DNA of 64,000 bases from Curvularia clavata (lineage: Eukaryota), in contig CP089274.1 of assembly GCA_023920165.1 (NCBI GenBank), forward strand, positions 4,092,001 through 4,156,000. The letters run 5' to 3'. The stretch's first letter is position 1. Each line of letters starts with the position of its first letter. Below are positions 14,712 to 63,434 of the stretch, piece after piece. Both the position numbers and the translations under genes were made by a program. Under the pieces are notes generated by a model, which was not told the origin of the DNA, made no database searches, and saw only the letters and a program-made list of their open reading frames with translations.

Positions 14712-15294
14712 GTTGACGGCACTGACTTGACGTGAAGGGCAATGCAGAAAATGGAAGAGAAAAATAAGAGAGCAAGGAGACGAAGAGGAAGAGAGAAAGA
14801 TCAGGGAAACGAAATTGATTTGAACTCGCGGAGAGTCGCAAGATCACAGGTAAAGGCGCGGCGGGGTCCAACTGACGACAAGTGGGGTGCTCGAGCTTAG
14901 CCGTTTTGAGGAGTGCATCCGACAACACCGAATCCGGTCCGTCGTCTGCATCGAGCTGCAGGTACCGTCTTAGTTCCGATGGCGCAAGCTTCTCCAAAGC
15001 ATAAGCCGTAAGGCTGATGCGCTTGTGGAGGAGCCATTGGTAGCCACTGACCAAACGCTAGGCTATAAGTGCAGACCGCCTTCCCAGAGCTCTTCTCAGG
15101 TGTTTTCCAGGGAGCTGAAAAATGTCGAAAAGGCGACAACTCGCCAGTGCTCAATTGGTTGCAAACAGTGGACATTGAGCTGGTTCGGGCGCAGTGTGCT
15201 AGAGCGTTATGCCAACCCAAATAGAATGCTCCTCCAAGGTGCGAGAAGTCCGTGTTCGTGAAATGTCTTTGATTGAATTTTATGCCGTGTCTGT

Positions 15295-19791: not shown

Positions 19792-22700
19792 ATGAGCCTC
19801 AGGCAGAATTTGCCGCTCAGGATTAGCTCGTCTGTAGCAAGCCAATCTCAGGCAGAACAACTGGCCCAGGACTTGCGGGATGCTGTTGAACGTACTGTGG
19901 AAAATGTTGCTGAGAACGAAAAACCCTCCCACCGGCTCTTGCCAAGGGCCGAACTTGTTCGGATACTCAACTACCGGTCGTTGCAACTGTTATTCATGGA
20001 ACTTCTTTCTGGTGCGCCCTTACCCGGAGAAACCGAGCGTTTTGTGATACGACGCATTGATGCGACGTTGGGTAGACCATCACGAATGTTACTCCTTGCA
20101 ATGTTCTTATACGAAAACCGCGAGGAATTGCTTTCCCTATACCTGGAATGGCTGGACGCTTTGCTTGATGATAATCCAGCCGATTATGACCATGTCATTC
20201 CTTCAGATGATTCTATACCATTCACGACGGAGACGCTGTACATATCTGGAGTTCCAGAGAGGCACCACAGATACATATTCGAGAATCAAGCAATATTTAA
20301 ACCTGTGACGCTTCAGCAACTGGCGCATCACAGAATTAACAACGGGGAGCGCTTGCCCTTCATTGGTAGACAAGAGCCAATCAAACCAGGCTCTTCAGGT
20401 GATGTTATGAAGGCCAAAATAGCCCATGGTCACTGGGAAATTGAAGCAGATCACGACTTCGTACCTGGTAATCCAAACCACCCAAAGGTTGTGGCTCTCA
20501 AGATCTTCAAGGATGTGGGAACTGTACGCAATATGAATGAAGCCACTCGAGACTTCATAATGGAGCTCAATATTCTCAAAGAACTGCGAAACTCCGAGAT
20601 CAAACATGATACGATCCTGCTGGACCTGGGCAGCATAACTGTACTTGGCGAGAACAAAACCCCAATTAGTCACTGTCTGATTTTCGATCTCGCAAGTTTC
20701 AGTTTGAATGATTACCTCAGGAATCAGGATCTCGCTCAAGGACACGTCAAACAATCTCATTTGCTTCAGAAACTTGTTGACATCGTCGAAGCATTATCAT
20801 TCTTGCATGACAGACTCGACACTTTACATCTCGACATAAAACCTGACAACATCTTGATCTTTGAAAATGGTGGAATTGGAAGTCAGTATGACCAGATCTG
20901 GAAACTCAGCAACTTCGGTCTGGCTCGCAAGATAACTGCAAGGCAAAGGGATACGTCTTCACAGGCTTTGACAGCCACATCGTCAGCACTCGCTAGGCCT
21001 GCGGTAAGACCGGCGGGTATATATCAAGCCCCTGAAATCCACGAGCAGGACACCAGTCAGGCACGTCGACGTACTGATGTCTGGTCTGTGGGTTGTGTTA
21101 CACTCATGGTACTCGCGCTTATGGTCGAAGGATCAAAGGCAGTGATCAGCTTGGAAAGTTCCTTGCTGGTTCACTTCTTGGATGATGATAGCAGACATCC
21201 TTTGTTCTACATAAGAAACGACACGTACAAGTGGAAATACCGAATGGCATACAAATACTGGTATTTACCCAGATTGACCCCCGAGAAAGATTACATTACT
21301 AGTACAGGGAGACAATTTTGGGCTGCTTTGCATCCTAATCTCATCGAGTGGTCTAATTTGCTACTTTTTGAATCGTGCGCTCGGAAAGTTCATCAGCAAT
21401 TCGTACTAAAGATACTTCAAGTTATTTTTGGTAAGGTTCTTCGGATTGACCGTAACAAAAGACTGAAAGCACATGCTCTGCGCAAGAGGCTCGCAGATAT
21501 CCAACAAGACTGGGAAATGTATGAGCTCGTACCTGAAAGCTATTCGTATAACGAGATCTCAACAAATCTGCATCTTGAGAAATCTCCTAAATTCCGGAAA
21601 CCTCAATCTAGCCTCCAAGGACAATCGAAACTACCCTATGCATAACAAGTCGTCGAGAGTCGTTTTCTTCACGCGAAACCGACACCTTATGAGCCTCAGC
21701 AGAATCAGAGAAATCTGATGGACAGACAAGAGAATTTAGTTCCACGAAAACTTCATGGACGAACTGCGCCGGGTCTCGTATATGAGTCAGAAAACCGAAA
21801 CTCAGGTGGCGAAGCCCAAAAACCCTTAGATGATATGTTTGGGGTCAGCAAACCGATATTTTCGACAAACCACAAGAATGCAAGTTCCAAAAAACGCGAT
21901 CTCATTGCAGACGGTCTACCAAGTAGTGACCCTCAGTTCCCAGTTCTGAATTCTGAAGAACATATCAATAAGAAGGAGGAGATTAACAATCCTGAAAGAC
22001 CAAGTTTGCCCTTTTTAGATGAAAGGGAAAAGTTCATTGTCGTATCTGAAGCATACGTACAGCCAAGTGCCAGCCTTCACAACGCCGTCTTCGATCCAGA
22101 GGCAATTACGGACACCAGTCCAATCAACACACCCTATCGGATTCATTGGAGTTGCGTAGGTCACCTCTAAATTATTAATACACATGTTCGCTAATCTACC
22201 TTGAAGAGCTGTGGCCACAGAGATTTCGACGATTTCACAGAAACTGTTCCTGGCGCTGTTGCCAAACTTGCCAAACTCTTACATGCCAACGGAGTTCGGT
22301 CTTACGTGGAGATTCACCCATCTGAGCCTAGGTTCTTTCTATTATATCTTCTACACCTCCTGATTCGTAATGTGGTTGTTTATCATGCCAAGGCCGCTGC
22401 CACACTCTTTCGGAACGTCTCCAGACCAAGTACCCCCAACCCATCTTCTGCAAGATCCGCAGGACGCCCTGATCCAACCAACTTATCTACGACGGCTAGC
22501 AGTGGACAGCAAAGTACACAATCGACCAGCGGTGTGCGTAACATGGGTTCTCACAGCAGCGCTGCAGGGTCCGCTCATATCTTAGTTACGCAACGTCAAC
22601 AGCCTTTGCCGAGCTCCCAAAACGACCACATGCTGTTGTGCGTAGATGAGAAAGGTTGGTTAACTACTTGGGAAGACTTGGACGTATCCCCGATCAAATC

Positions 22701-23596: not shown

Positions 23597-24730
23597 TTGA
23601 TGTTTCCAACAGTCTTAATGTGGGGAACACCAGTACGTTGGTCCTTGCCTCAGTCGAGCTTAGAAGATGAGGCACCACAGTTCGAACTCAATACGGGACT
23701 TCATCAAGCATCCAAATTTGGGGTGGCTGATTGTGTGCAGCAATTACTTCAAGACCCTGATGTTGATGTCAACGCGGTTGAGAACGAAGATGAAACACTC
23801 CTGACACTGGCCATAATGAATGGTCATGATAAAGTTGTTGAGCTTCGCTTGCGAACAGATACAATTGACTACTGGCTCCGGAACAAGCGATGAGAAACTC
23901 TCTTCCTTTTAGCGGCAAGAGGCACGAACACAGAAGTTGTCAAGCATCTGCTAGCCAAGGGCGTTGAAATCCAAGCACAAGACAAGGGAGGGGGGAACGC
24001 GCTCCACATAGCTGCCGAGTCCCACTGGGATAGTGCTCAGATGGCTGAGTTACTCATCGCTGAAGGTGTTGAGATCAATGCGAAGAACAATAATGATGAG
24101 GTGCCTTTACATAAGGCCATAAGCAGCACCAGCCCCAAGGTTGTTAACATTCTGTTATCTCATGGGGCGGACAGTTCCGCCACTACGAAAGCGGGAATGA
24201 CGCCGCTTCACTATGCAGCTTGTGGGGACCTAGCGATAGCGCAGGCACTGCATTAGGCTGGTGCAGACATAAACGCTAAGGTCGAAGACGGGGAGATTGT
24301 CCTGAAAAGGGCTGTATTCTTCCAAAAACGCGAAATTGTGGAGTAGCTGCTATCTCTTGGTGCAGACGCTACAACGGTTTCCAAAGGTGGATGGACACCG
24401 CTACACTCCGCGGCTTTGGGAAAGGATCTCCTGATAGTACGAGCGCTGCACCAAGTAGGCGCAGACATGCACGCTCGCAACCTGTGGGGGGACACTGTTT
24501 TGAGTTTAGCTATAGAACAAGATCGCGCTGGCATGGTTGAGTGGATTCTCTCAGTAGACATCAGGTCATCAATCCGAGACCTATATAAGCTGCGCATGGC
24601 ATTGGGATTTGGAGCTTTTGACACATTGAAGCTATTAATCAACAAAGGCGTTGGATGCAACGCGCATAGCGGGATTCCTGCGAGCATTCCAGAAGGTGTT
24701 TGTCAAGTAGGCCATAAAGATACTGTCTAG
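23597..24730 (+). pseudogene. Ankyrin-repeat gene broken by three nonsense codons
   Basis: ORFs 23597, 24041 and 24416 share one frame, with stops at 23891, 24254 and 24344. The intervening sequence still encodes ankyrin repeats (ETLFLLAARG..EVVKHLLAKG, GNALHIAA, GWTPLHSAA). Confidence 0.85.
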
Positions 24731-44900: not shown

Positions 44901-46487
44901 ATGACTTCGAGATTCCCCACGGCAGAGGAGTTTGCGTCTTTCCCACCACCGAACTATGTAAATCCCACGAACCACCTGCCCATGGCGCTGGGCGTCGTCG
45001 TCCCGATGACCATCATCGTCACTGTATTCATGACATGTCGACTCTATTGCCGGACTGTTCTTGTCAAGACATTGGGATGGGATGATGGGTTGATGTTGAT
45101 CGCAGCTGTGAGTCTGAAAGCGCTTTGTTGAAGTGAACCCGGGGACTAACGTGTGTAGGTACTGTGTGTCGGTAGCAATATCATGTTGATAATATCCATG
45201 CTACCAGAGTACCAGATGGGGTATCACTTATGTACGCGACCCTTTTGCATCACTCAGTGCAATAGCTGACCCTGAGTAGGGGATATCCATCCAGAAAAAC
45301 TCTATGGCGCAAACAAAGCTGCTCAGGTATGTCGTTTCAGATTCCGGGCCCTCTGGTACTAACCGTAATCTAGATGGGCATGGCGACTCAACTGCTTTTT
45401 ACTGCGATCGCGACCTTTATGAAAGTCGCCATTCTTCTGACGTACATCCGTAAGCAAGCGCCAAGCCTGAGACTCTACTGAAGCATGCACTGACCTGCAT
45501 GAATTACACAGGCATCTTTCCGGCCAAGCTCGATAGGTGGTTCTGCCACCTAATGATCTTCTACACGGTGTCGCTGAACACTGCTTGCTTCTTCGTGACC
45601 CTTTTCCAATGCTCGTAAGAAAGGCCCATGACCCGCCTTTGACATGTCATACTGACCTGAGTGTTATAGTCCAGCAAGCACTTACTGGAGGATCTTCGAG
45701 TTTATTGGCACTGCGAAGTGTCTCAACATCAAGGCCATCTACTATTTCCACTCAGGACAAAACACCTTGAGCGACTTCATCATCTTTCTGTGGCCGGCAC
45801 GGAATCTCATCAACGTTCAAGTATCGAAGCGGCAACGATTTACGTTGATCATGATGTTTTCACTGGGTGTAATGTGAGTTTACTCCTTTGCCCAAGCTAG
45901 CAACCCAATCCTAACCTGTGACAGTGTATGCATTGCTGGTATCGTACGACTATACTTCACCCACCGATACCTTGTATCATTTGATGCTTTCTGTAGGTTT
46001 TCTCTTTTCTATTTCCTCGAGAACAGAAACTAAGACAACAACAACAGGGTACGGAGGCTCAACCTTTATCATCATGTCCATCGAAAGCGGCGTCGGCGTC
46101 GCATGTGGATGTCTTCCTGGATGCAAGCCTTTGATGAACAAAATGTTTCCCCGCATCTTTGCCAACTCGTCACATCCATCTTCCTACCCACGCCGATCGG
46201 CACATTTTCGGGCTCGAAAAGGCGTCCAAGAGTTTTCATCGGGCGCGCGTTCGGAGCAAATGTCGTACAACCAAAAGGAAGAAGACCCAAGCGCAATGGA
46301 AAAAGCCATTCGACGAGACACGCCATCAACTCATCAAGCAATGGCCACATCGAAATCGCTGCCCCTGCACCCGGGCATTCGACCCCCTAGTCGAGCTGCA
46401 TTCCCCGGAGGGAGAAGGGAAGGATACAGCGAACTAGACAACGAAAGCGAAGACAGCATAGAGATGTTCCTCTTGCAGCGGAATTAG
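44901..46487 (+). CDS. Pth11-like fungal rhodopsin-domain integral membrane protein (no CFEM), multi-exon
   Basis: FPPPNYVNP N-terminus, RLYCR...LGWDDGLM, KVAILLTYIR/IF, SDFIIFLWP, IESGVGVACGCLP. Several GT-AG introns, boundaries not all resolved. Confidence 0.82.
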
Positions 46488-47465
46488 AAGCTATGCGAGT
46501 ATAATTTTGTTTTGTCCTTTTGCGCAGTGTGCTTAGATACCCAAAAAGCCTTTACCCCGGGCTTGTGATATGATACTCGTAACCACTGCTTTTTTTCGCC
46601 TACTCCAGCTAGTCTACAAGATTACATTGACCCGCAATTGGGCTTAAGTGTCTTGTGGTGATGTCGACGACGACCATACGGACCGATTCTACAGCGACTA
46701 CAAAGACCAATTTGGGCACTAGGCGAGGCGCAACACGTGCCAAGAGGGAGAAAAGGACAAGGGTCCAATCTTCCACACAAACAGTGGGCCAGACCCGGCC
46801 AGGAACCCCTCCTCCCCATCAGTCCATGATCGATCAAATCACATGCATGAATCATTGTTTCGTCCGCTTTTTTTCTCCTTGCTCTAATCTGTTTCTCTTT
46901 TACCCTGGATCAGCGAATTAGCGGTCGCTGGTGCTGTCTCAGCAAAATCAAACGTGACTCTGGATGCAGATGGCGCCATGCACGTCAACTTGACTAGTCC
47001 ATGTCTTCCTGCCATCGCGCGGTGGGTATTGTTCGGGCACGGCTGAGAGGCCCAGAAGCCGTAGCCGAAACAGACCGGTGGTGAAGACATCGATTTGACG
47101 ATTTTGGAACGTGGGCAAAGCCCGCGGCGTTATGGACGGAAGTAAGAAGTAGAGGGCGACGCTTCTTCTTCTGTTCAAGTTTCAGACGGTGCCTCTTCCC
47201 TCCTCTCAATTCTCTATTTATCCACGCTCCTGATAAACTTTGACTACGGCTCGGAATACGAAGAAACGGGAAGAGTCTCGAGAAGCTAGAAATACGCTTG
47301 TCTCTTTTCCTTGGGTCTATATCAAGCGCGGACGGTATCTCACCGACGCCAATACGGTGAACATAAGCCAGTGTCTGTACCCGAAACGACCCGCGGAGAC
47401 GACCAGCAACTTTCTTAAACGTCATTTTTTCTGCCTAATAGTCAATTCACACAAATCTGCTAGTC

Positions 47466-48851
47466 ATGGCGACGACGCCCGTGGAACACGCGACGACGGC
47501 GAGTACATTTCCTACGCGCCAAAAGCCGCTCCCATATGAATTTGTCAACGGGCGGCGAACCCCTCTTTCGTCCATCCTGCCGCCCCTCGTTTTTGGAACC
47601 GCAACTTTCAACCACCAATACAATACCGATCCCTTCGCGCTCGACACAACTGGCCTCGTGACATCGGCGCTCACACATGGCATCCGTGCCTTTGACACGT
47701 CGCCATACTACGGACCCTCTGAGCAATTACTCGGCGATGCGCTCGCTACACCGTTTGTGCGCGAGACGTTTCCGCGGAACTCATACATGATCCTGACAAA
47801 GGTCGGGCGGATAGCAAGCGAGGAGTTTGATTACAGCAAAGAATGGGTGCGACAAAGCGTCCAACGGAGTCTGCAACGTCTACAAACAGAGTACCTGGAC
47901 CTAGTCTACTGCCACGATGTCGAGTTTGTGAGCCCCGCCGAGGTTCTGGAAGCAGTCAAGGAGCTGCGCCGGATAAGAGATGAAGAGGGCACAATCCGGT
48001 ACATTGGCATTTCAGGGTATCCGCTCGACGTCCTGGGCGACATGGCTGAGCTCATCTTGCGCGAGACGGGCGAACCCCTCGATGCGGTGCAGTCGTACGC
48101 CAACTTCACACTTCAGAACCAGCACCTCGCAGGCGCAAGGGGTATTTTGCGCCTCAAGAACGCAGGGGTCGACGTAGTACCTAACGCTTCGATTCTCGGC
48201 ATGGGCCTCCTCCGCCGTGAAGGCATTCCCGTCGGAGCCATGGGCGACTTCCACCCCGCGCCGTCGTCGCTACGCGAAGCCGTGCACAAAGCCAGTGCTT
48301 TTTGCGACAACTACGGCGAGCGCATCGAAGTCATCGCTATGCGCTTTGCCCTTGAGACATGGATCTCTGCCGGCGCACTCTGCGGCTCTCAAGGCGACCC
48401 CGCGTCGGGTCTCCCTTGGCAGCACGAATCCATTGACGACGTCGGCGGCTCCAAGCTCGGCGTCAGCGTTATCGGCGTATCACGTGCCCAGGAACTCGAA
48501 AAGACTATGCTGGTCTGGCGCTCTATTCTCGACGGCCTAGAGGGCGGTGAGGAAACTGCCGTTCAGGCTGGGCGTTGGCGCCGCGCTTGGGAATGGAGTC
48601 GCAATCGTAGGAAGGCAGTGCAGATCCTCGCAGAGGGTGTGCAGGAGGTGCTTGGTGAGGGATTCGGCTTCGAGTGGGCGAGTCCCGGCCCGGGATATGT
48701 TAATAAGAGGGTGAAGAACAATGAGAAGAAGGATGCGCTGCAGAGCGAGCAAGCAGATGCCCCGTGGTTGACACCTGCTGCTAGTCCTGAGGCGTTGCCG
48801 ATAAAGGATGTGAGCGAGGTTGCAGAAGAGAAGGCCCTACCGTTGAGGTAG
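47466..48851 (+). CDS. Aldo-keto reductase, D-arabinose/L-galactose dehydrogenase (Ara2-like)
   Basis: LVFGTATF, FDTSPYYGPSE, LTKVGR, SLQRLQTEYLDLVYCHDVEF, IGISGYPL. Confidence 0.88.
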   Translation: MATTPVEHATTASTFPTRQKPLPYEFVNGRRTPLSSILPPLVFGTATFNHQYNTDPFALDTTGLVTSALTHGIRAFDTSPYYGPSEQLLGDALATPFVRETFPRNSYMILTKVGRIASEEFDYSKEWVRQSVQRSLQRLQTEYLDLVYCHDVEFVSPAEVLEAVKELRRIRDEEGTIRYIGISGYPLDVLGDMAELILRETGEPLDAVQSYANFTLQNQHLAGARGILRLKNAGVDVVPNASILGMGLLRREGIPVGAMGDFHPAPSSLREAVHKASAFCDNYGERIEVIAMRFALETWISAGALCGSQGDPASGLPWQHESIDDVGGSKLGVSVIGVSRAQELEKTMLVWRSILDGLEGGEETAVQAGRWRRAWEWSRNRRKAVQILAEGVQEVLGEGFGFEWASPGPGYVNKRVKNNEKKDALQSEQADAPWLTPAASPEALPIKDVSEVAEEKALPLR

Positions 48852-49441
48852 TCCACGCACGCGTGTGTGTATAGGGGCGTGCGAACTATTGGTATATATA
48901 TTCTTTGTACCTAGAAGCATTCACCAAATCCTGTGAATATGTCCTATTCTTATTCGTTCTTTGGCGATCTTTTGTTTTGGTATACCATGTTTGTACGTAC
49001 AGCACAGACAAAATCAATGACATGTGAATCAGCCCCATTTAAGGACATTCCCTGTATCCTGGGCCGCAGCGTAGTAGTGTACTTGTAGGTTGGCACAAAC
49101 AAAGCGATAGCTGAGGCAGGGCAGAAGGGGATTTGCATAGATACGTATACATTCGACGGATGAAGCAGCTACGGTAATGAAGATGATTTGATACTTCACA
49201 TTTGAGCCACTGCCTAGTAAAAATTACAACTTAGGAAGCAAGAGGAATGATGTAGAAACAGTCTAGAAAAGGTCAAATTTACAGAAACTCACAACATACT
49301 CGAGAAATTCAAAACGAAGGATAATGAATAATTCGTAACATAAACTATGTGATATCATATCAAGACAATCTGCATTCCATCGCTTCATCAATCATATACA
49401 CAAGTAAAGAAAAGGATCTTCCTCAACAATCTTCACGCAAT

Positions 49442-50953
49442 CTACAACTTCGCAAACACCGTCGGCACCACCCCACCCATCTCGACCAATGTACTCTTAT
49501 TCCTCACCCAAGCCTCCAGCCCCTTTTTACCATTCTCCACGCCCACACCACTCTGTTTCCAACCGCCAACACTCATCTCCGCGGGACTCTCACCCCAGGT
49601 GTTAATCCACGTGATGCCGGCCTCCAGCTGCGCAATCACCTTGTGCGCAGTGTTGATATCCTTTGTGAAGATACCGGCAGCCAGGCCGAGCGGTGTGGCG
49701 TTAGCCCGTTGAACGACTTCTTCGATGGACTTGTAGGACAGAATGGACATGACGGGGCCGAAGATTTCTTCTTGGACGATTTTCATGTCGTCGGTACAGT
49801 CTGTGAAGACGGTGGGTTGGACCCAGTAGCCGGCTTGGTAGGATTTGTCAGAGTGGGAGGAGAGCCAGGATGGGGTGGAGGGACCGCCGCAGAGGAGGCG
49901 GGCTTTGTCGGTTTCGATGCCGTGTTTGATGTAAGATAGTACTTTGTCGTAGTGCGGCTTGGAGACAAGAGGGCCAAAGTTGGTGTTCGGGTTGTAGAGG
50001 TCTCCGGGTCGGATGTATTGTATCTTTTCCAGTAGGCGCTTCTCAAATTCAGGCTTCATGCCTTCGGGGACGAAGACGCGGGTGCCATTGGTGCATACTT
50101 GGCCGGTGGAGAAGAAGTTGGCGAGCATGGCGCCGTCGACGGCTTGGTCGACATCGGCATCGGGGAGAATGATGCATGGGGACTTGCCGCCCAGCTCCAT
50201 TGTCACGTATTTCATCTCGCCCGCTGCGCTGCCGGCTACCTTCTTGCCCGTTGACACTTGTCCAGTGAAGCTGACTTTGGCGATACCAGAGTGCTTGGTA
50301 AGGTATGCGCCTACATCGCCGCCGCCCTGGACTACGTTGAAAACACCCGGAGGCACACCGGCCTCTGTGTAGATATCTGCAAGGACAGTTGAGTGGAGAG
50401 GTGTGAACTCTGAAGGCTTGTAGACCATGCAGTTTCCGGCAGCCAGGCAGGGCGCTGATTTCCAAAGAGCGATCTGGATAGGGTAGTTCCACGCTCCGAT
50501 ACCTGCGCAGACACCTAGCGGGCTCTTGGTGGTGTATACCCACGCATCTGGGCGCAACGGAGCCGTCTCGCCATTCATTCCGCCTCCTCCGACCAGGTTT
50601 GCGAAGAATTCCAAGACATCGGCGCCCGTAACTACATCGACTGTGGAAGTCTCGGAAAAGGGCTTGCCTGTATCGCTTGTCTCGATTCTTGCGAGCTCAT
50701 CGTTTCGCGCGCGAAGCAGAGCGGCGGCTCGCTGGAGGATGCGGGCGCGTTCAATGGGGGGCGTGGCGGACCATGATGGAAAGGCCTTGTGGGCGGAGGC
50801 TATGGCCGCATCGATGCCAGCAGGTGTAGTCGCGTGGATGTTTGCGAGAGGCTGGGCGGTCGCGGGATTAATGGTTTGGAAAGTAGAAGCAGAAGAGGAG
50901 GATTGGATCTTGCCGTCGTAGTAGGCGGAGCGAGGCGCATACGGGAGAGACAT
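49442..50953 (-). CDS. betB: Betaine aldehyde dehydrogenase (BetB-type)
   Basis: [61 protein letters not shown]. Lies next to choline oxidase. Ends in AKL. Confidence 0.92.
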
Positions 50954-51996
50954 GATTACGGGCAATGAATGAAGTATGAGATAAGGAAGCAGTAGTGGTC
51001 ACGGCGGAGGTTCACTGGAGATTATGGCTCAAGCACTAATTCTCAACTGCAGAAAGTCAGCCGCGCCCTGGTTGAGTGATGTAACACGCAGCGACGGGGT
51101 TTGATGCCAACATTCGTATATATTATGCAGAGACAGCGCCGGAGAGCTGGCATGCAGCGGTTGCACTCTGTCTACCTGTTTGAGGCTAGCAGTCAATGAC
51201 TCGGGACGTCGCAAACAGCAGGATAAGCTGGCAGCGTTACGTATGCCACGGAATGCTGGACAGGGAGTATTGTCGGTTTTCAGCGGGATGGCGTTACGTC
51301 TGGGAGCTCAGAGTTTCTCGCAGATGGGCAAAAAACGTCTTGCCTGGTGGTTGCGCCACTCACCGCCCTCGGATCAGGCAAAGTGCGGCGTAGTGTGCAG
51401 GGATTAGGCTGTCGGAACCTGCAGCCTGCAGCGGGGTACGCTAGCCCAAATGCGGCCATGGCGTCATCGGACACTTTTACGACGACTTTTTTCTTTCCAC
51501 TATTCTGCCCTATCGTCTGGCGTATAATGGGCACAAAGCATACGGAACAAGCTTTTCACGATGCCCTACAGCAATCTATTAAAGGAATTTCTCGCCTTTC
51601 ATTCGCTAGCGACGAGCATCCCTTTATCCAGCGCAATCTTGTCGTGAACCGTTACAGACTCGTGCATACGTAGCTGAAGACTGTTGACCAAAGCACGTGC
51701 ACAGTTCCGGCCCTATCGTAAACGGCCCTTTTTAGTACGCCCTTATCTTGGAAGGCAAACTACATATCCTGCAGCCGGTCAAAAGACACACCACCCAGCC
51801 TCTCTTCACGACTCACTTTGCTGGCCGGCTTGCTGCCGACCAACCGATTGCGATCCCCGGTCTGTGCTTACTACACTGGCTCTTCGCGCGATCGTCCGCA
51901 TATATATAAACTCGCTGGAACGTGGAAAAACGTCTATCCAGTCCAAGTATCCCCCTCGCCACCTTTTCCATCTTCACCCTCTACCCACACGCGACA

Positions 51997-53679
51997 ATGG
52001 CTTTTGAGACTGTGACGTCCATCCCTCAGGATGCCCAATACGACTTTGTCATTGTCGGAGGTGGCACAGCTGGCTGTGTCATTGCCTCGCGCCTTACTGA
52101 ATACCTCCCCAACAAGAAAGTCCTCCTAGTCGAGGCTGGCCCAAGCGACTTCATGGATGACCGTGTCCTGCTCCTCAAAGACTGGCTCAACCTGCTCGGA
52201 GGAGAGCTCGACTACGACTACGGTACCACCGAACAGCCCAATGGCAACTCACACATCCGACACTCACGTGCAAAGGTCCTTGGTGGTTGCTCTTCACACA
52301 ACACTCTTATCTCTTTCAGGCCGTTTGAGTACGACTGCAAGCGATGGGAGGCTCAAGGCTGCAAGGGCTGGAGCTTCAAGACTTTTATGCGTGTGCTTGA
52401 CAACCTCCGCAACACCGTCCAGCCCGTGCACGAGAGACACCGAAACCAGCTTTGCCTCGACTGGGTCGAGTCGTGCTCCACCGCCATGAACATTCCCGTG
52501 ATCCACGACTTCAACCATGAGATCAAGACCAAGGGTGCTCTCAAGCCTTCCGTCGGCTTCTTCTCCGTTTCATACAACCCTGATGACGGCCGCCGAAGCA
52601 GCGCTAGTGTAGCGTACATTCATCCCATTCTCCGTGGCGAGGAGACTCGCGACAACCTGACTGTGCTCACCAACGCATGGGTTAGCAAGATCAATGTGTC
52701 AGGTAACAAGGTCACTGGTGTCAACCTCACCCTCCAGAGCGGCGAAAAGCGCACCATCAACCCCAAATGCGAAACCATTCTCTGTGCTGGTGCCGTCGAC
52801 ACCCCACGACTGATGCTCTTGTCTGGTATTGGCCCCAAGCAACAACTCTCCGACCTCGGCATCCCCGTTATCAAGGATTTGCCTGGTGTAGGTGAGAACT
52901 TGCTTGATCACCCAGAGAGTATCATCCTCTGGGAGCTCAACAAGCCCGTTCCTGCAAATCAGACCACCCAAGATTCAGATGCCGGTATCTTCCTCCGACG
53001 AGAGGTTCCCAACGCAGCTGGTGATGATGGTGACATTGTTGACATTATGATGCACTGCTACCAAATTCCTTTCTGCCTGAACACTGCTCGGTAAGCGACA
53101 AAGGCTCATTTTGAAAATTGCAAACTCTAACATATGCGCAGTTTGGGTTATGACTCTCCTATTGATGCCTTCTGCATGACCCCCAACATTCCCCGCCCCC
53201 GCTCCCGCGGTCGCCTCTACCTCACCTCCGCTGACCCCAACGTCAAGCCCGCCCTTGACTTTCGCTACTTCACTGACCCCGAAGGCTATGACGCCGCAAC
53301 CATTGTTGCCGGTCTCAAGGCCGCACGAGAAGTCGCCAAGCAAGCCCCATTCTCCAACTGGATCAAGCGTGAGGTCGCCCCTGGCCCCCACATCACCTCT
53401 GATGAGGACCTTTCCGAGTACGGCCGCCGCGTTGCTCATACCGTCTACCACCCTGCCGGTACCACCAAGATGGGCGACGTCACCAAGGACGAAAAGGCCG
53501 TCGTCGACGCTGAACTCAAGGTCAGCGGCCTCAAGGGCATGCGTATTGCCGACGCTGGTGTTTTCCCAGAAATGCCTACTATCAACCCCATGTTGACTGT
53601 CCTTGGCATCGGCGAGCGTGCTGCTGAGCTGATTGCCCAGGAATGGGGCTGGAAGGGTCTGGAGAAGGAGAAGTTGTAA
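51997..53679 (+). CDS. codA: Choline oxidase (GMC oxidoreductase)
   Basis: GGGTAG FAD motif, RAKVLGGCSSHN (His at the flavinylation position, as in Arthrobacter choline oxidase), TVYHPAGT, TINPMLT. Intron 53091-53141. Confidence 0.9.
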
Positions 53680-53976
53680 ATGTGGGTGTGGAGACGAAAA
53701 AGAAGATTTGAGTATTTGATGGGAGCATTTGTGACGATTATATGATGATGATGCTGCTAAGTTTCTTTTCATGTTGTTTATATATATATTGATGGCTGGT
53801 ATCGAACGATCTATCCAATTTGACAATACTTACCCCTTGAGGGATTCATGATTTGCAAAAGAAATACTTGGAATGTAGTGTGTTCTGGGGTCGCGGTGAT
53901 GTTTTTGTTGATGTATTTTTGACCTTGCGGTTTCATCACATCCAGTAAGAAGTTAAATAATCTGGGTTATTAACTA

Positions 53977-54060
53977 ACGTCCGTCCCTATGTGCCGGGAC
54001 GCACGATGTGACGGGACACCGTCTCGTTCGGACGCTCGTACTGCCTGTTACATTCTCAAA
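53977..54060 (+). repeat. Left terminal inverted repeat of the large element
   Basis: Ungapped match to the reverse complement of 63351-63434; preceded by TA at 53975-53976. Confidence 0.88.
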
Positions 54061-55305
54061 TATAGGTAAGTAAGGTGCGCGTCTATTCTGTAACTCTTAT
54101 TCTCTAAGCACATTGGCCTCTGATGCCAAAAATCGCGTTGTTGCCTATACTGTCGCTCGTTCTATTAGTGCCTGCGACCCACTCTCCTCTATTAAACCCC
54201 TGCTTGTTGGCGATAGTATATTAGTAAGGAGTTTAGTGGGCTAAGGGAGAAACTAAGATGTTAGAGTTTAAGACTGTAGCTTTAGAAGTTTAATATAAGG
54301 TGAAGTGTATACATTCCGGCTGTTTCTCCGCGCTGGCGACAACATCGTCAAAACGCGTGCAGCCGGCCGTGCGACTTTAGCGGCATTTGGCAGCGGTAGC
54401 GTGCTGAGATATCTGCGAGGGGTTGCGTGTTGTGTAGCTTGGAGCTGCGGCTCTCACTCATTGCCTGACCTTAGACAGCTCTTATTCCCAGGCCGTATAG
54501 ACAGCCGCCCCCGTTGCATAGTAGAGCCAGGCGAGACGTTACAACGATAATCTTTATAGATTAGTTAGCTGTAATTGCTAGCATCTTACCTACATATACA
54601 CTCTTCTAATATGAGTTTGTAAGGCAAATACTGCCTTAGCGCAAATAGCGAGTTGAGGCAGTGTAGGACGCTGGGCGCTTGATGCAACTAGCAGCATCTT
54701 CAGCCTGGTTGTGTGTTCTGCCTCACTAGGATGCTTTCTCTGTCTTATTGTAAAGATGCCATTCTACTCCCGCTAACGTTCTACTCTCACTCATCTACTA
54801 CAGAATTTGTTCATGCCTCTAGTTCTTTAGACTAAAGTCCGAGCTGCAAGCGCCATGCGGCTCCTCCTGTACGGGGCTGCGCTCCGTGGAGCAATCGCTT
54901 TGGTATACAAGAGATTGTATTCGATAGGGAGCCAAGCTCCCAAGTTGCATAGCTATCCATATACAATACTAGTTGCCTAAGCAACAATCGGGTCGATCTA
55001 GTCCGGCGTTTAAGCGCCGTTTAGACAGTGTAAGCACCCGGAATCTGTAAGACGACCCGAGATCCCGTCGAGGAGTAAGACCAAAGGGCACCAGCCCGTT
55101 ACAGCTTTGTGTTGCTGCGTGCGTAGACCGAAATGACATTCCGCTCGATCTACTCAAGGCAGCTTCGCCTCAGGTCTGTGTAGATGCGATTATGACACAG
55201 GGCTGATCGAAATCGGTTTCCGTATCATGCACTTTGCTTGTTCTCGTCGCACGGTTCTCCAACAAGGCGCTTATCCTAGCTGGAACATATTTCTAAAACA
55301 ACTTA

Positions 55306-57166
55306 ACGTGACGGATAAGCGAGTCGGTCAGGCAAGCGAGTCGGTCACCTCACCAACTTTGCGCACCTCTATAAGCGTGTAGCTCCACCACCATATAGCT
55401 ATCTTAATATGTATTAATATAGGAAGTTAAGTAGTATCTACAGTATCCTTCTTACATGTACGTGAGTTATGGCCAGTCTCTCTACATTTACTACAGCGCG
55501 CCAAAGCCTGGCGGCTCACACCTGATCGCTCCCCTCCTTGACGCTCTTCGTAAGCAATCTGCTGATCAGCCTCGCGTTGAGCGAGTAGATCCTCTCCAGC
55601 TCCCTTTGTAAGGACTCCTCGCTTCTGTATTCGCTTCTTTTTACGCTGTCTACGCTTTGTGGCTGTATCATTAGCCTTTTCAAGGCTGGCGATTCGATCG
55701 CGCATTAGCTCAGCTGAGAGTATCATTATCTCTGCCCCCTTCTTAAGCTGGCCAATCGCCGCAATAATTGAAGCTGGTGATGAGCTTTTGTGCTGTCGAA
55801 CGCGATTACTTATTAATGTTGATTGAGCTTCAAGCTCGCGTACGTTGCTCGGCGTACAGGCCTGCCAGAGAGCTTCTGCGAGAGCTGGTAGAGCTGGCGT
55901 AGTTGGCGTACATAGCTGCACGTCAAGCTTTGATAGAACAGTATCTGGCTGGAGAGGAACAAGGCCTGCACCTCGAAAAGCTGAGCATATATTGGCTGAC
56001 GTGAATGATTGATCAAAGGCTGCCTTAAATGCTGGCAGAAACTCGAGCTTGGTGATGTGGTTGATGTGGTTGCGTATTAGGCTCTCTATCTCACGGCTAT
56101 ACGCGCGCTTCAATGGCGAGAAGCAGCCAACGTCAAGAGGCTGAAGAAGGTGAGACGAGTGAGGCGGCATACAGAGCGTGTAGATATTGTTCTCCTTGCA
56201 GAGCTCTTGGAACTCAAGTGACTGGTGGCTCTCATGGCCGTCAAGAATAAGCAGCCGGCGTGACCCAACAACCTTGCCATCTGTATGCTTGACAAAGTGC
56301 TTCAGCCACTCAACTCCTAGCTCATTGGTCGTCCAGCCATTATCGCTAACTGCGATAGCCCAGTTGCGTGGGATTTCTGCCTCCTCATACCAGGCAGATA
56401 GGTGATACTTGCCAGTAAAGATTAGAAACAGTGGGATAGACCAGCCAGCTGCATTAATCCCAGCGATAAATGTTACCCACTCTCGGCCACCTGGCTGGAC
56501 GGCCTTTGGCCGGCCTCTTCTCTCTGACGCTGTAATGATAAGCTGAGTAGTAATCTTGCCCATTGAGAAGCCAGCTTCGTCAAAGTTGTAGACGTCCTCG
56601 TCACAGATGCCGTACTTGGCCTTTGTCTGCTCCACAAGCTCAAACCAGTTCTTGATTAAGACTGGATCTTCACATAGAGCCCTCTGCCTATCGTACGCCC
56701 GACTAAAACGCGTCGTAAGACTGTCTGTACGCTTGACAAAGTTAGCTGGCCACTTCTGTCCAACCTGGCCAGCGCCGCGCGCAGCTAGCAGCTTATTAGC
56801 CATATCGCGCACAGCAGCGTAGGTAGGCGCAAATTCACGTAAGTCAAGATCAAGTATATGATTAGCTATCACATCTTCCTCTAGCTTAGTAAGTTTCTTT
56901 GAGTTGGGCTGGCAATCGCGTCGCACGCGCTTCCCAGCGCGTCGGTCAATTAGTGTTAATTTTGGAATATTAAAGGCTATAGCAGCGCGCCGGGTACTCT
57001 AGATTTGGTTTCTATTTAAAGAAGAGAGAGCAAGCTGAATATCTACTTCGTGAGAAATTGACTGAGAAGCGTGGCTTAGAGGCATTGTACGCAAAGGTGT
57101 GGTAGGTGATCAAAGTTGGTGGGGTGACCGACTCGCTTGCCTGACCGACTCGCTTATCCGTCACGT
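55306..57166 (-). mobile_element. Fot1/Pot2-like pogo DNA transposon (1861 bp), full length, nested in the large element
   Basis: 56-bp TIRs (55/56 identical) starting ACGTGACGGATAAGCGAGTCGGTCAGGCAAGCGAGTCGGTCACC, each with two AAGCGAGTCGGTCA direct repeats. TA target duplication at 55304-55305 and 57167-57168. Confidence 0.96.
55427..57085 (-). pseudogene. Pogo/Fot1 transposase (HTH, DDE_1, CCHC knuckle) with a premature TAG at codon 29
   Basis: ATG 57085 MPLSHASQ...NRNQI*STRRAA continues in frame into ORF 55427..56926. Catalytic motifs YNFDEAGF, LILDGHESH, QPLDVGCF; C-terminal CSKCRETGHNSRTC. Confidence 0.9.
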
Positions 57167-58183
57167 TAGTTAGTCATCCTGTTTAAGCTAGTTAGTTGTA
57201 AACTGTAGCTATCAACGACAATAGTAAAAAACAAAGCAGGAGATAGAGGGAAAGTGTAGGTGAAAGAGAGAGCGAAGCGTAGGATAGTTCACACAAGTAA
57301 GTTTAAGGTGCTAAACTCTAGGCTACATAGCCATCTATATACCTAGGAGCTGATAGATAGTAAAGGCTGATCGTCCGATCGGTGATTAGGGCAGGCAACA
57401 GAGAAGCACCAAGACCATAGACGAGGATAAGGGAGCAAAAGGCTATTATAGCCTAGTATATAACCAAGCTTACTCCTGCTTTAGTGCACGTCCCAGCTTC
57501 TAATTGGTTGCTTACATGAGTGTAAGACGGTATATAGCTGCATCTAGAGGTTTAAAGATATGCTGCGGAGAACAGTTCCGCGACTGATAATGATTAGGCA
57601 AGCACTTTTAGACGAGGCAGAGTTATTGATTGTTACCGACGCCATGTCCGGAATAGCTGCATATGACTGAGAGTCGTGGAGACTGTGAGTTGAATCTGCA
57701 GCCTATTTGCGTACCTAGCTAATGAGCAGCCAATGATCAAGACGGTGTTGCCGCCCCCACGACTTGCCTGCGTCTGCAGAGGCATCTGCTGACCGTCAAT
57801 TCGACGGCACAGCTCAGCCCGCCCGCTTAAAGCTAACAACATGCATGCAGTAGGGGCTGTGCGAGCTACCAAGCAGGAAGCTAGAAGTTGAGAGCCCAAG
57901 GGGCTGAGGGCTTGTATTACGAGCAGGGCAAGGTTCAAAGTCCTGCCATATAGCTCATCTTGATGAACATACCCAGTACCCAAACCACAATCAGCTTCCG
58001 ATACAGCTATTGTGCAAATTCGAGATGCAGCGCAAGATACGACCATAGCTAAGGCGAAAGATTCTATACTATCTAGACAAACCGTAGCGCCGCCATAAAA
58101 CGCCGCATTCCCGCTATTCATCCCTCATCCGACCCACCGCGTTCTCGTGCTCTCGAGCACATCGCGACTGATATAGTTGCACC

Positions 58184-61100
58184 ATGATTCCGGTTCCATC
58201 AAAAGTGGACAACTCAGAATATACTGTTGGATGGATTGCCGCATTACCACATGAAAGGGCCGCAGCTCAAGCAATGCTAGACCAGAAGCATGCACCGCCC
58301 CAGCAGAAACATGTAAATGACCACAACATCTACAGCCTGGGCTCCATCACCAGTCCGAACGGAGAACATAATGTGGTTATCGCCAGCCTCCCGTTCGGCC
58401 GATACGGAACGACCTCCGCCGCTACGGTAGCGATGCAGATGCTCTCTAGCTTTCCCAATATCAAGTTCGGACTGATGGTTGGGATAGGGGGTGGCATCCC
58501 AAGCGAGGACAATGACATCCGGCTAGGCGATGTTGTGGTGAGCAAACCAGAGGGTACATTTGGAGGCGTCAGGCAGTATAATGTCGGAAAAGCTACTACC
58601 CACGGTTTCGAAGAGCGTGGCCAGCTAAACTCCCCACCACAAGTTCTTCTCAACGCTATGGGGGCGCTTGTAAGCAATCATGAAATGGAAGAGAGCGTCA
58701 TACCTAGTCTTTTAGAAGCTATGCAAAAGCAGTATCCGAATATGCGCAGCCAAGCGAAAGGGCCGGGATATGTCTACCAGGGTGCAAAATACGATCGGCT
58801 ATTCGAAACGGACTATACGCATGATAGTAGCAAGAGAGACTGTGACGAGTGCGACCCCGCGAAGGTGGTGAAGCGCCAAGAAAGATACGATCAAAATCCA
58901 TGGATTCACTATGGCACTATCGCTTCCGGCGACGAGGTTATCAAAGATGCTCGAAAACGGGATTTGCTGTCCAAAAACTGCCTCTGTTTCGAAACGGAAG
59001 CTGCTGGGTTAATGAATAATTTCCCGTGTCTTGTCATCCGTGGAATTTGCGACTATTCTGATAGTCATAAGAATGATCAGTGGCAAAAGTATGCGGCAGC
59101 TACGGCGGCTGCATATACCAAAGAGCTTCTTCAGATTACCGATGTTGCCGAAATCAAAAGCACACCTTGTGCACGCGATGTTATGGATGAGTGTTAGTTA
59201 TAATTCTCTATCTATGTTACAATTTAGCATTGTCATTATAGTTTAAAATGTTGACAATAGCGGCACTTCGATCATAAATTTTGAAGCTTGTGCTAATTTA
59301 AGACGCAGTAAAAGAAATCAAATCTATCGCAAAAGACATTATCCAAGATCAAAAGCGACATGATATTTTCGGATGGCTAACTACACTAAATCCATCTTCT
59401 CGGCATCTCGAGAGTCAAAAGAGGCGTGTTGAAGGTACAGGTAGATGGATGCTTGAGGACCCGAAGTTTGTCCAGTGGTCCTCGACAACGGCAAAATGTA
59501 GGACATTATGCTGTTACGGGGCTGCAGGGGCTGGCAAGACAGTTATATCGTGAGTAAAGAGAGAGTTGACTATTCATTCTGCTAGCTAACAGTCTGGAAC
59601 AGCTCCCTTGTGATTGATCAATTGAAAGAGCGCTTGGCAGCCACGAAGTCAAGCACAGGGCTCGCATACGTGTACTGCGATTACCGTGATCAGAAGGAAC
59701 AATCCATAGAAAACATCCTTGGCGCAGTCTTGAAGCAACTACTGGGGCTTCTACCTGAAATTCCTGAGATTGTTTTGAAAGTATACGACGAGTGGGCTAC
59801 TCATCAGAAACCACTAAGCTCGGCAGATGCGGTGGATCTCCTGCGCGCAACCTGTGCGCAGTTCAGTAGGACCTACGTTTGTCTAGACGCGCTTGATGAA
59901 TTCGGCGATATACGAGGTCTTTTAACCAAGTTGCGCGACAGTCCTTCCTCAATGCAAATATTCTTGACTGGTCGTCAACATATCCAGAATACTGTCCAGG
60001 AGTATTTCAACGAAGAGAACATCATTCCTATCGAAGCTTGCGAAAACGACATTCGACTATTCTGTGAACATGAAATTGGTGGAACTAATGATCTTGAGCC
60101 CGATGCTATGGACGAGAAACTTAGAAAGGCTACTTTGAGAAGAGTCACTGAATCTGCTGAAGGAGTGTTAGTATAGCCACATCCAGCATAACTCCCCGAT
60201 ACTAACAACAAATCATAACTAGCTTTCTACTACCTACCTTGCAAATCCGCGCCGTTCTCCAAGCTACAACAATACGTGATCGTTACAAAGCTCTCGAGAC
60301 GTTGCCGTCAAATCTTGACGAGGCCTTCAACGGAACTATGAGTAGAATTGAGCAGCAGCCCAGCGCTCTATTCAACAAAGCGGCAAGTATTCTTGCTTGG
60401 ATCCATCTAGCAGAACGTCCATTGACTGTCAATGAGCTGTTATGCTCCCTTTCGATCAAGGACGGTGACGAATATCTTGACCCGGACGGCATACCTATCA
60501 GAAAATCTCTACTGAACTGCTGTCAAGGGCTAGCTCTGATTGACGAAGAGACGTCAACTGTCCGTTTAGTCCACTATTCTCTCGAGGAATATCTCACCCG
60601 TCAAGACAGGATATTTGGCTACACCAAACTAGTATGGCAAAGCAGGATCGCACGTACATGTCTTACATTTCTCCAGTTTCCGTCAAGGAGAGCTGAAGCC
60701 ACAATAATGGAGAACGGCGAGACCATTACGCTTTTGTTCTATGCTGCTACACAATGGGGCCACCATCTTCGAAGGGCTGGTGATTTGGGAGATGCTCTAT
60801 TGGAACTTGCTATAGAATATCTCTACCGCGGATTAGCCGATAATCCCAAACACTTGCTCCTCCTGTACGAAACGATGTGTTCATATAGACCTTGGACGAA
60901 CAAACCCAATGATGTCTTGCGTACTCATATCGCAGCTTTCTTTGGCATTTCGGGAACCATGGCTCATCTGCTTTCAACAGATCAGACGAATCTAGACTCC
61001 AAGGACAAGGAAGGTCAGACGCCGCTATCGTGGGCTGCGAGGTGCGGACATAAGGTGGTGGTAAAGCTACTACTCGATACTAGCAAGGTGGACGTCAACT

Positions 61101-62014
61101 CGAAGAACAAGGAAGGTTACACGCCGCTATCGTGGGCTGCGAGGTGCGGATATGAGGCGGTTGTGAAGCTGCTGCTCGATACTAGCAAGGTGGAAATCGA
61201 CTATAAGAACAAGCACGGTCAGACGCCGCTATCGTTGGCTGCGGAGAGAGGACATGAGGCGGTTGTGAAGCTGCTGCTCGATACTAGCAAGGTGGAAATC
61301 GACTATAAGAACAAGCACGGTGAGACGCCGCTATCGTTGGCTGCGGAGAGTGGACATGAGACGGTCGTGAAGCTGCTACTCGATACTAACAAGGTGGACG
61401 TCAACTCCAAGGACGAGGAAGGTTACATACCGCTATCGTTGGCTGCGGAGAATGGACATGAGACGGTCGTGAAGCTGCTACTCGATACTAACAAGGTGGA
61501 CGTCAACTCCAAGGACGAGGAAGGTTACATACCGCTATCGTGGGCTGCGAAGAGGGGACATGAGGCGGTGGTAAAGCTACTACTCGATACTAGCAAGGTG
61601 GACGTTAACTATAAGAACGATTACGGTCAGACGCCGCTATCGTTGGCTGCGGAGAGAGGACATGAGACGGTCGTGAAGCTGCTACTCGATACTAGCAAGA
61701 TAGACGTCAACTCCAAGGACAAGAAAGGCCAGACGCCACTATTGTTGGCTGCGAAGATGGGACACGAGACAGTCATAAAGCTACTACTTGGTGCTAGCAA
61801 GGTGGACGTTAACTCTAAGGACAATTGTTATGGTCGGACACCATTATCATGGGCTGCGCAGAGGGGACACAAGGCGGTAGTAAGGCTGCTACTTAATACT
61901 GGCAAGGTGGACGTCAACTCTAAGGATTGGGATGGTCAGACGCCGCTATCGTTGGCTGCGTGGCGCAGACACGAGGCGGTCGTGAAGCTGCTTCAGTCTT
62001 CTATAGTCACGTAG
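58184..62014 (+). CDS. Fungal NLR: PNP_UDP (nucleoside phosphorylase) - NACHT - ankyrin repeats
   Basis: PNP motifs YTVGWIAALPHE, GLMVGIGGG, CFETEAAG, RGICDYSD. Introns 59193-59308, 59550-59602 and 60167-60222 give an open frame through GTGRW, P-loop CYGAAGAGKTVIS, Walker B CLDALDE, LVHYSLEEYL and 10 ankyrin repeats. Confidence 0.93.
60995..62000 (+). repeat. Ten tandem ~102-bp (34-aa) highly conserved ankyrin repeats
   Basis: Unit consensus [DN][SY]K[DN]xxG[QYER][TI]PLS[WL]AAxxGHE[AT]VVKLLLDT[SN]KV[DE][VI]; near-identical DNA between neighbouring units. Confidence 0.95.
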
Positions 62015-62381
62015 CATTTAACACTTCGCAAGCCGCCATCTCGCTCACTACCTTACTGCTAAAAGTCTCTTGTAGATCTATAGTCCCTTAAATAATTGTG
62101 TACTTTTGAATCCAATGTAGCTTGATCATCAACATCGAGATCATGTTAAAGCGTTTTTTATCTCGGTAGCGACGACATTGTTGTAAGTTCCTTATGATAG
62201 TTACGGAAAACACGGCAACGCTTAGTTTTCTAGAACCTCGAAAGCAAAATAGTCTCCATGGCATAGACTCCTGGTCTTCCTGTACAGCGGCTTTCCGTTT
62301 GCGATGTTAACATAGCTGTATGCTGTGCTGTATTACTGTAACAGGTTAACTATTCAGTTGTTTAGTTAGCGTAGAGAGAAT

Positions 62382-62652
62382 TGTAACGGCACGAGCAAGA
62401 CTAGTCGAATCGGTTCCTGTGGGAAGTGTCACTTAAATGCACATGGAGGTGCGTGGAACAATAGAAACACCTTAGGTTTGGTAGACACTCATAGGCCTGG
62501 TACGAAAGAATATTAAAAATCTACTAAACATCTATGGAAGGTACTAGGTACTTCTACCTTAGTACGGGTCTTCATCGGATCTGTCCCGGTTCTTGGTCGG
62601 ATCTCGATGAGCCGTCTTATCTGGGGTAGGTCTTGGTCAATGTATGGTTACA
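62382..62652. mobile_element. Probable solo LTR (271 bp)
   Basis: Begins TGTAAC and ends GTTACA (6-bp inverted ends, TG...CA), size typical of fungal LTRs. No target-site duplication visible. Confidence 0.4.
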
Positions 62653-63350
62653 ATTAGTATATTTAGTAGCATAGCAGATTTATCTTAGAGTTGGAGTATG
62701 TTATTATACTAAAGTTCTTAGTAGCTTTGCATAATAGGTATTATACGCACTAGAGATTGGGAACTTAAGACTAAACTATGATTACTTGCAGCGCCGGGAA
62801 TAACAGCAGCCCGAAATATCACTCTCAGCGCCACAACCCCAGCCATAGTGCGCAGTAAAAGTTGCAGACATCTCAGCGCGCTAACTACTTCTGCCGGACG
62901 TTGCTTAGGACGCACGACCGATTGCATGCTTTTCGACGATCTAAACTTCCACGTGCCGGGATGCACACTGCTCACTTTAAGTCGACTCTTTGAGTGTACA
63001 GTCTTGATCTTTGCTATCTTAGCTTTCTTTCTAGCCTACCGAGCTATGTTGAAGTTTATGCTGTTGCAAAAAAAAACAAGAATTTATTAGAGGAAAGTTG
63101 ATGAATAGTACCAACGGAACAAGCGATAGTATGGTTAACAACCCGCTTTTTAGCGTTAGAGAGTAATATACTAGAAGAGTTAGAGGTATAGAATAGTGTA
63201 AGCAATTGAGTGTGTAAGAAGTATTGTGTATTCTCTTGTATATGATGCTGAGTACAAGTTTAAATACAGTGGCATTAGTCAGTGGCTAACCACGTGACTA
63301 TACATGGTACTTCTGGGCTTACAGATAGATATATATTGCGTTTATTTATT

Positions 63351-63434
63351 TTTGAGTACGTTACACGTAGCCTGAGCATCCGGAAGAAAAGGTATCCTGT
63401 TACACCGTGCGTCCCGGCACGAAGGGACGGACGT
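63351..63434 (-). repeat. Right terminal inverted repeat of the large element
   Basis: Ungapped match to 53977-54060; followed by TA at 63435-63436. Confidence 0.88.

Follow-up and report, generated by a model that had tools for sequence, protein, structure and literature searches.

Does the 64,000-nucleotide stretch of Curvularia clavata DNA analysed here (the window; GenBank assembly GCA_023920165.1, contig CP089274.1, positions 4,092,001 to 4,156,000 of the forward strand) carry an immune receptor gene that arrived as the cargo of a mobile element? In fungi, the repertoire of NOD-like receptors (NLRs) changes rapidly, and its genes are clustered close to transposons. A preliminary description of the window, made from its letters alone, had taken the gene at 58184–62014 for the intact cargo NLR of such an element, with a nucleosidase domain as its effector, lying amid decayed DNA and able to benefit the element or to addict the host to it. 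The reading we favour, with a probability of roughly 55%, is that the gene encodes a functional PNP_UDP-NACHT-ankyrin receptor, that an old pogo-like shell delivered it, and that it is now a host immune gene.

The NLR gene is complete, intact, and expressed. Splice options were enumerated and those with canonical signals picked; the four exons joined in this way (Table 1) amount to 3606 nt, which translate into 1201 amino acids and a stop with no internal stop codons. The three introns (116, 53, and 56 nt) all have a GT(T/G)AGT donor, a YAG acceptor, and a CTAAY branch site 16–21 nt from the 3' end. Pfam profiles give the architecture PNP_UDP-NACHT-winged helix followed by ten ankyrin repeats: PNP_UDP_1 is matched at the N-terminus (E = 1.4e-6; 28.4 bits against a cut-off of 25.1), the NPHP3_N profile runs unbroken across exon 2 (profile positions 1–38) and exon 3 (39–164), and the winged helix (GPIID_WHD) and the ankyrins are matched as well. 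Both Walker motifs are preserved. Most full-length homologs can be aligned across junctions 2 and 3 with no gap, and junction 1 agrees with the record P0012.

The splicing is also seen in contigs from public sequencing runs, of which four of the 23 listed (X1, X3, X4, and X12) were compared with the window over positions 46000–60890. A single 3210-nt contig from X12 spans 57974–59192 (record positions 1–1219) and 60223–60890 (record positions 2025–2692); the intervening 805 nt match exons 2 and 3 exactly, and its listed joints include the one into 59603. X3, which bears a different organism code, provides one contig that stops at 59192 and another that links 60166 to 60223, and the listed NLR pieces of both runs are free of gaps. 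The RNA status of X12 is a guess and X3 is unlabelled; both contig sets lack the GT..AG intron of the oxidase gene nearby. These transcript-type contigs agree with the three junctions that the preliminary description had predicted, and the single open frame, the P-loop, Walker B, and PNP motifs, and the domain assignments that it had read from the letters were likewise recovered. A public Curvularia protein, P0285, equals our model exactly, except that exon 2 is skipped and the P-loop is lost with it; the four-exon model fits the transcripts better than this public model, which misses the P-loop exon.

Selection on the gene was measured as dN/dS, the ratio of nonsynonymous to synonymous substitution rates (Nei-Gojobori, 95% bootstrap intervals), against two metagenome relatives, L001 and L002, at 85% DNA identity. 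For the PNP exon the ratio is 0.13 (0.08–0.21) and 0.17 (0.11–0.26) against the two relatives, and for NACHT plus winged helix it is 0.21 (0.15–0.27) against L002. These values are far from 1, and dS between the NLR and these relatives is 0.3–0.5. L002 is a pseudogene, with a stop in exon 3, the replacement D290Y, and a frameshift in the ankyrins; because one comparison partner is a pseudogene, the constraint on the window's NLR is, if anything, understated. With splicing observed, dN/dS low, and the catalytic residues kept, the earlier suggestion of a functional receptor under selection is borne out. L002 (1–5990) adjoins the downstream end of another NLR-like gene, and the inverted arms described below are absent from it.

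The ten ankyrin repeats share 57–94% DNA identity (the first eight 75–94%), and their variation peaks at repeat columns 7–10, 18, and 19. Compared with the Bipolaris maydis protein P0283, 288 of 316 positions are identical in the PNP domain and 312 of 349 in the NACHT-winged helix region, against 227 of 332 in the ankyrins. A conserved engine combined with a fast-changing sensor, as this comparison reveals, is the usual pattern.

The NLR is the single gene in a unit enclosed by imperfect inverted arms of about 650 bp. At the left end a TA is followed by ACGTCC, which starts at 53977, and the mirror image closes at 63434 in front of another TA. The homology of the arms extends over about 650 bp (53977–54630 against 63434–62664), with 322 of 507 aligned columns identical (64%); beyond the terminal repeat it scores 253, whereas 200 shuffles scored 66 ± 9 with a maximum of 103.5. 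The open reading frames (ORFs) of the arms yielded no trace of a transposase, and a DUF3435 captain, the gene on which Starship elements depend, had no match among 36 long ORFs of the window and 30 short ORFs of the arms and spacers. A target duplication of 9 bp, of which six letters agree, was weighed and given up for TA, since another copy of the family ends at the same TA. A partial internal copy of the motif of the terminal inverted repeat (TIR) lies at 62953–62967, some 470 bp into the arm and in the reverse orientation relative to the right TIR, and is perhaps a candidate subterminal transposase-binding site.

The left arm belongs to a dispersed multi-copy repeat family. Other contigs align on it at 79–86% identity in X4, several contigs cover each of its sites in X1, and X12 contains a copy that stops at 53974 and whose flank is different. 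The NLR appears to be single-copy: its cover in X1 and X4 is flat and comes from a single contig, summed depth not being equal to copy number. In X4 the host genes and the left arm are joined in one contig, with 164 differences in 8401 letters. Because this contig carries the left arm at the same site, the shell predates the split from the X4 organism. The pogo/Fot1-type transposon nested in the shell has a DDE_1 transposase with one in-frame stop near its start (Pfam match and ORF reading), and many related contigs align on it in X1 and X4. It is missing at this site from X4 and X12, which skip 1863 nt (1861 plus TA) and leave a single TA; the nested element is a younger, polymorphic insertion because these runs lack it. 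Between its ends and those of the outer unit, only the ACGT terminus next to the TA is common.

Table 1. Features of the NLR gene, the surrounding inverted-arm unit, and the nested transposon (positions in the window).
Feature	Position	Strand	Description	Basis
NLR 5' untranslated region	57974..58183	+		X12 contig start 57974, X3 contig start 57988; contigs cannot fix the true start
NLR exon 1	58184..59192	+	PNP_UDP effector domain, a nucleosidase of MTAN fold; residues E24, E272, R286, D290	Pfam PF01048, AlphaFold fold, residue conservation
NLR exon 2	59309..59549	+	Start of NACHT (NPHP3_N), Walker A GAAGAGKT	Pfam, motif reading, X12 contig
NLR exon 3	59603..60166	+	Remainder of NACHT, Walker B YVCLDALDE	Pfam, motif reading, X12 contig
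NLR exon 4	60223..62014	+	Winged helix, linker, 10 ankyrin repeats (102-nt period), stop 62012-62014	Pfam; 60166/60223 joint in X3 and X12
Outer unit, 9,458 bp	53977..63434	.	ACGT...ACGT ends; TA at 53975-76 and 63435-36; transposase of its own not found	
Left arm (TIR and subterminal part)	53977..54630	+	Family sequence extends to about 55300	
Right arm, inverted	62664..63434	-	78% to left arm over terminal 94 bp; 132-bp extra piece	
Nested pogo/Fot1-type transposon, 1,861 bp	55306..57166	-	TA-flanked; 65-bp TIRs at 95% identity	

The repeat-derived flanks of the NLR measure about 4 kb on its left side and 1.1 kb on its right, with a TpA/ApT ratio of 1.1–1.5 against 0.69 over 1–50 kb, whereas the rest of the window contains long ORFs that match ordinary housekeeping families in Pfam. 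The phrase "amid decayed DNA" therefore fits the few kilobases of repeat that flank the NLR and does not fit the remainder of the window. The betaine-aldehyde dehydrogenase (BADH) and slt11 proteins of the window group with records from Bipolaris, Exserohilum, and Stemphylium; in B. oryzae and B. sorokiniana the accessions of BADH, slt11, and lunapark follow one another closely. Judged from these records, the window is core Pleosporaceae chromosome with a BADH-slt11-lunapark block that is conserved in Bipolaris. In the two assemblies for which both genes are listed, lunapark is two accession numbers away from slt11, and the three B. maydis records homologous to the NLR are 2444, 1602, and 1233 accession numbers away from it. 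Accession order, combined with assumed assembly membership, suggests that the B. maydis homolog resides at a different locus.

That the NLR was carried as cargo is plausible, and its delivery by a single element is a little better than an even bet. The notion of cargo is supported because both outer ends are intact, inward-facing, and flanked by TA, while no full inner TIR was found in the unit; because repeated ends surround a unique middle, an arrangement that the public-run contigs reveal for the left side; and because the B. maydis homologs apparently occupy another locus. Several observations weigh against this reading. Neither an empty site nor a second NLR-loaded copy was seen in the contigs over 46000–60890, an interval that excludes the right end. 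The divergence between the two arms exceeds that between the left arm and other copies of its family. Any Tc1/mariner insertion is flanked by TA, so the flanks cannot distinguish one insertion from two and a single event is not proven. A protein scan of metagenomes returned four loci from 500 candidate stretches, none of them with arms or a pogo transposase; L001 reaches only 1.1 kb upstream, and neither it nor L002, whose homology is limited to 58178–62335, has arms in the available sequence. A scan of metagenomes for the TIR pattern returned 0 loci, and no autonomous partner was identified by that scan or among the elements of the window. What survives of the cargo claim is thus that the NLR lies inside a TA-flanked unit with inverted arms; the empty site or second loaded copy that would go with it was not seen.

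An alternative explanation is that the NLR is functional but was never cargo, and that two diverged family copies inserted independently on either side of it and later lost their inner ends. If this were the case, the NLR would have come by another route, such as ectopic recombination, a Starship remnant, or introgression, and the locus would be an ordinary NLR. Arms that are only 64% alike, a single-copy NLR, and relatives without arms are all compatible with two insertions, as is the general association of repeat-conserved NLRs with transposable elements (TEs), whose share of the flanks is 23.4% against 2.4% for random genes (PMC13449251). However, two outer ends that are both intact and inward-facing, with no inner TIR found, speak against independent insertions, and we consider this explanation rather unlikely. 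The long, imperfectly matching inverted arms on either side of one gene might also be the scar of a local inversion with duplicated breakpoints. This is very improbable, as the arms stem from a dispersed family and end exactly where TA meets ACGT, as does the copy with a different flank; family copies with the same termini already disfavour an inversion. The suggestion that the NLR addicts the host to the element, as a toxin that punishes element loss, finds some encouragement in an effector that, by analogy, is probably toxic once active, and in an intact NLR within a decayed shell. However, the unit yielded neither an antidote nor any second gene, the NLR is apparently single-copy, and relatives exist outside the shell, one of which is now a pseudogene. 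NLR effectors are moreover expected to stay silent until sensing, and we regard this part of the preliminary description as unsupported and very improbable.

Under the favoured reading of a delivered host receptor, the ankyrin array would sense a ligand that marks non-self or damaged self, which would switch on the NACHT domain and make it oligomerise, and the N-terminal nucleosidase would cleave adenine from ATP or dATP, with cell arrest or death as the outcome. A pogo-like Tc1/mariner shell, old, free of transposase, and with arms that are long but imperfect, would most likely have brought the NLR into the housekeeping block before the split of the sampled sister strains or species. The shell would have decayed afterwards and been hit by the younger pogo, while selection would have retained the NLR, in a single copy, as an immune gene that benefits the host and is not an addiction module.

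The catalytic residues of the PNP domain are kept. In alignments of 45 and 106 sequences, E24, E272, R286, and D290 do not vary at all or are conserved to at least 90%; D290 aligns with the catalytic Asp region of MTAN, and E24 presumably corresponds to MTAN Glu12. The AlphaFold model of the domain, built with the 106-sequence alignment, has an MTAN fold (pLDDT 90.5). The effector probably kills the cell through ATP cleavage, to judge by analogy with the PNP domain of one fungal NLR, which Rousset et al. (bioRxiv 10.1101/2023.01.24.525353) showed to be toxic to E. coli and to favour ATP over dATP; because that assayed domain prefers ATP, an ATP nucleosidase is the best guess here. It counts against this part of the favoured reading that ATP cleavage and membership of the Cap17 clade are drawn by analogy, whereas the best structural matches of the model are methylthioadenosine/S-adenosylhomocysteine (MTA/SAH) nucleosidases. 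The domain could accordingly be read as an MTA/SAH-type nucleosidase that acts on signalling or microbial metabolites and is not a lethal ATP nucleosidase, as Dyrka et al. (PMC4986451) already proposed, and the top sequence and fold matches in the PDB are all MTA/SAH or futalosine nucleosidases. However, these matches are weak (12–18% identity among the structural ones; 48 bits against the NCBIfam MTAN cut-off of 169), the PADLOC defence-effector PNP profiles match at E = 1.2e-17 and 3.4e-16, and the fungal domain assayed by Rousset et al. favours ATP, so that the metabolite reading is distinctly unlikely. In an insertion of the PNP domain (58820–58852, residues 213–223), H213, C220, and C223 are invariant or nearly so among 106 relatives and may form a putative metal-binding site. 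The records P0121 and P0122, from B. maydis and Zopfia, have an internal gap across the PNP catalytic stretch that is possibly a gene-prediction error.

Did the NLR also move between lineages? All ten clusters with PNP identity of at least 86% were opened: their named members are from B. maydis (3), Paraphoma (2), and Amniculicola (1), besides the Curvularia record, and the remaining ones are metagenome or sequencing-run proteins. Absence of the NLR from other taxa is weak evidence, because 8000 candidates were scored and cluster representatives conceal members. PNP identity between the genera (window, B. maydis, Paraphoma, and Amniculicola) is 81–90%, and between the window and Paraphoma or Amniculicola (P0127, P0166, and P0172) it is 87–89%; the window's BADH is 91% identical to that of Bipolaris and 85% to that of Cucurbitaria. 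The PNP domain thus appears about as similar across families as a housekeeping dehydrogenase, which makes horizontal spread possible. Among relatives at equal protein distance, dS is unsaturated and the introns can be aligned. In a quick tree the window groups with B. maydis (SH-aLRT 91) inside a clade of 13 rows (99). This tree also fits vertical descent with many losses, and we regard horizontal spread as a lead. A recent transfer from Eurotiomycetes, in which the best full-length matches reach 70–74%, was considered and rejected given the closer Pleosporales relatives and the grouping with B. maydis. More generally, small transposase-free "Pack" elements of pogo type, with arms of several hundred bases, might carry whole spliced NLRs within the genomes of filamentous fungi and possibly between Pleosporales families, with the present locus as a settled example that carries an ATP-nucleosidase NLR. 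We advance this tentatively, as a proposition that is more doubtful than probable. If it were true, the flat 81–89% PNP identity across three families would reflect transfer by such elements.

Three further observations concern the host side of the window. A divergent pair of genes at 49442–53679, each under spliced contigs, encodes a betaine-aldehyde dehydrogenase and a GMC oxidase that we take to be choline-oxidase-like; the two are probably a pair for glycine-betaine synthesis. An ankyrin-like stretch with an in-frame stop (23633–23953) lies downstream of a kinase-domain ORF (19783–21645), with which it possibly forms a decayed or intron-split kinase-ankyrin gene. Two 33-nt purine/pyrimidine tracts in inverted orientation, 32 kb apart (14755–14787 and 46867–46899), are probably a chance pair.

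As a protein, the NLR is an ordinary member of a common fungal type. PNP_UDP accounts for about 20% of the annotated N-terminal domains of fungal NLRs (Dyrka et al. 2014, PMC4986451), and it is carried by hetA and hetD of A. fumigatus (PMC11138114). Two PNP/NACHT/ANK genes of Podospora have been described, e.g., Pa_2_8180 and Pa_3_8560, with the same three-part architecture and a conserved ankyrin array with variable surface positions; the window's variable ankyrin columns resemble their hypervariable repeats (PMC4986451). We see no difference from them at the protein level, and the gene of the window differs only by its enclosing shell. With the ATP nucleosidases Cap17, DtcC, and NLRN the protein shares PF01048 at the N-terminus of an NLR, the catalytic Asp region, and a match to the PADLOC effector profiles, although NLRN carries tetratricopeptide repeats (TPRs) where the window's NLR carries ankyrins. 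By this analogy the NLR is a further candidate for ATP-depleting immunity in fungi.

The packaging of the NLR resembles known cargo elements but differs from each in its details, and its move is plausible. In the literature searched, with subscription papers and bioRxiv supplements outside its scope, we found no description of a TA-flanked, long-armed element with a whole NLR. If the reading is true, a small TA-flanked shell around a single complete NLR would offer a tangible path of mobilisation besides Starships and ToxhAT. A 2026 study of Podospora associates NLRs with conserved repeats with TEs and proposes direct mobilisation without demonstrating it (PMC13449251). The nested transposon is a standard member of the pogo/Fot1 family of Tc1/mariner, which duplicates a TA target, whereas the outer unit differs from that family in that no transposase was found in it and in its unusually long arms; long TIRs within Tc1/mariner are noted for Minos and Tec (PMC7325037). 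Starships resemble the unit in that NLRs are among their frequent cargo, but they need a DUF3435 captain (Gluck-Thaler et al., PMC9156397), and the 9.5-kb unit is flanked by TA, with no captain found. ToxhAT, a TIR-bounded unit of the Pleosporaceae, also combines an NLR (Patatin-TPR) with a nested DNA transposon; it has 74-bp TIRs that are 92% alike, no target duplication, and eight genes, and it moved between species (McDonald et al., PMC6737239). The unit of the window, in contrast, is flanked by TA and holds only one gene between arms of about 650 bp that are 64% alike, and its transfer would be a matter of inference. Plant Pack-TYPE elements, including Pack-Mariner, are likewise non-autonomous TIR units with repeated ends and unique host DNA inside, and they could arise from two neighbouring insertions; the plant examples hold gene fragments and are multi-copy (Gisby and Catoni, PMC8903248), whereas the Curvularia unit holds, in one copy and in a fungus, a whole spliced gene under selection.

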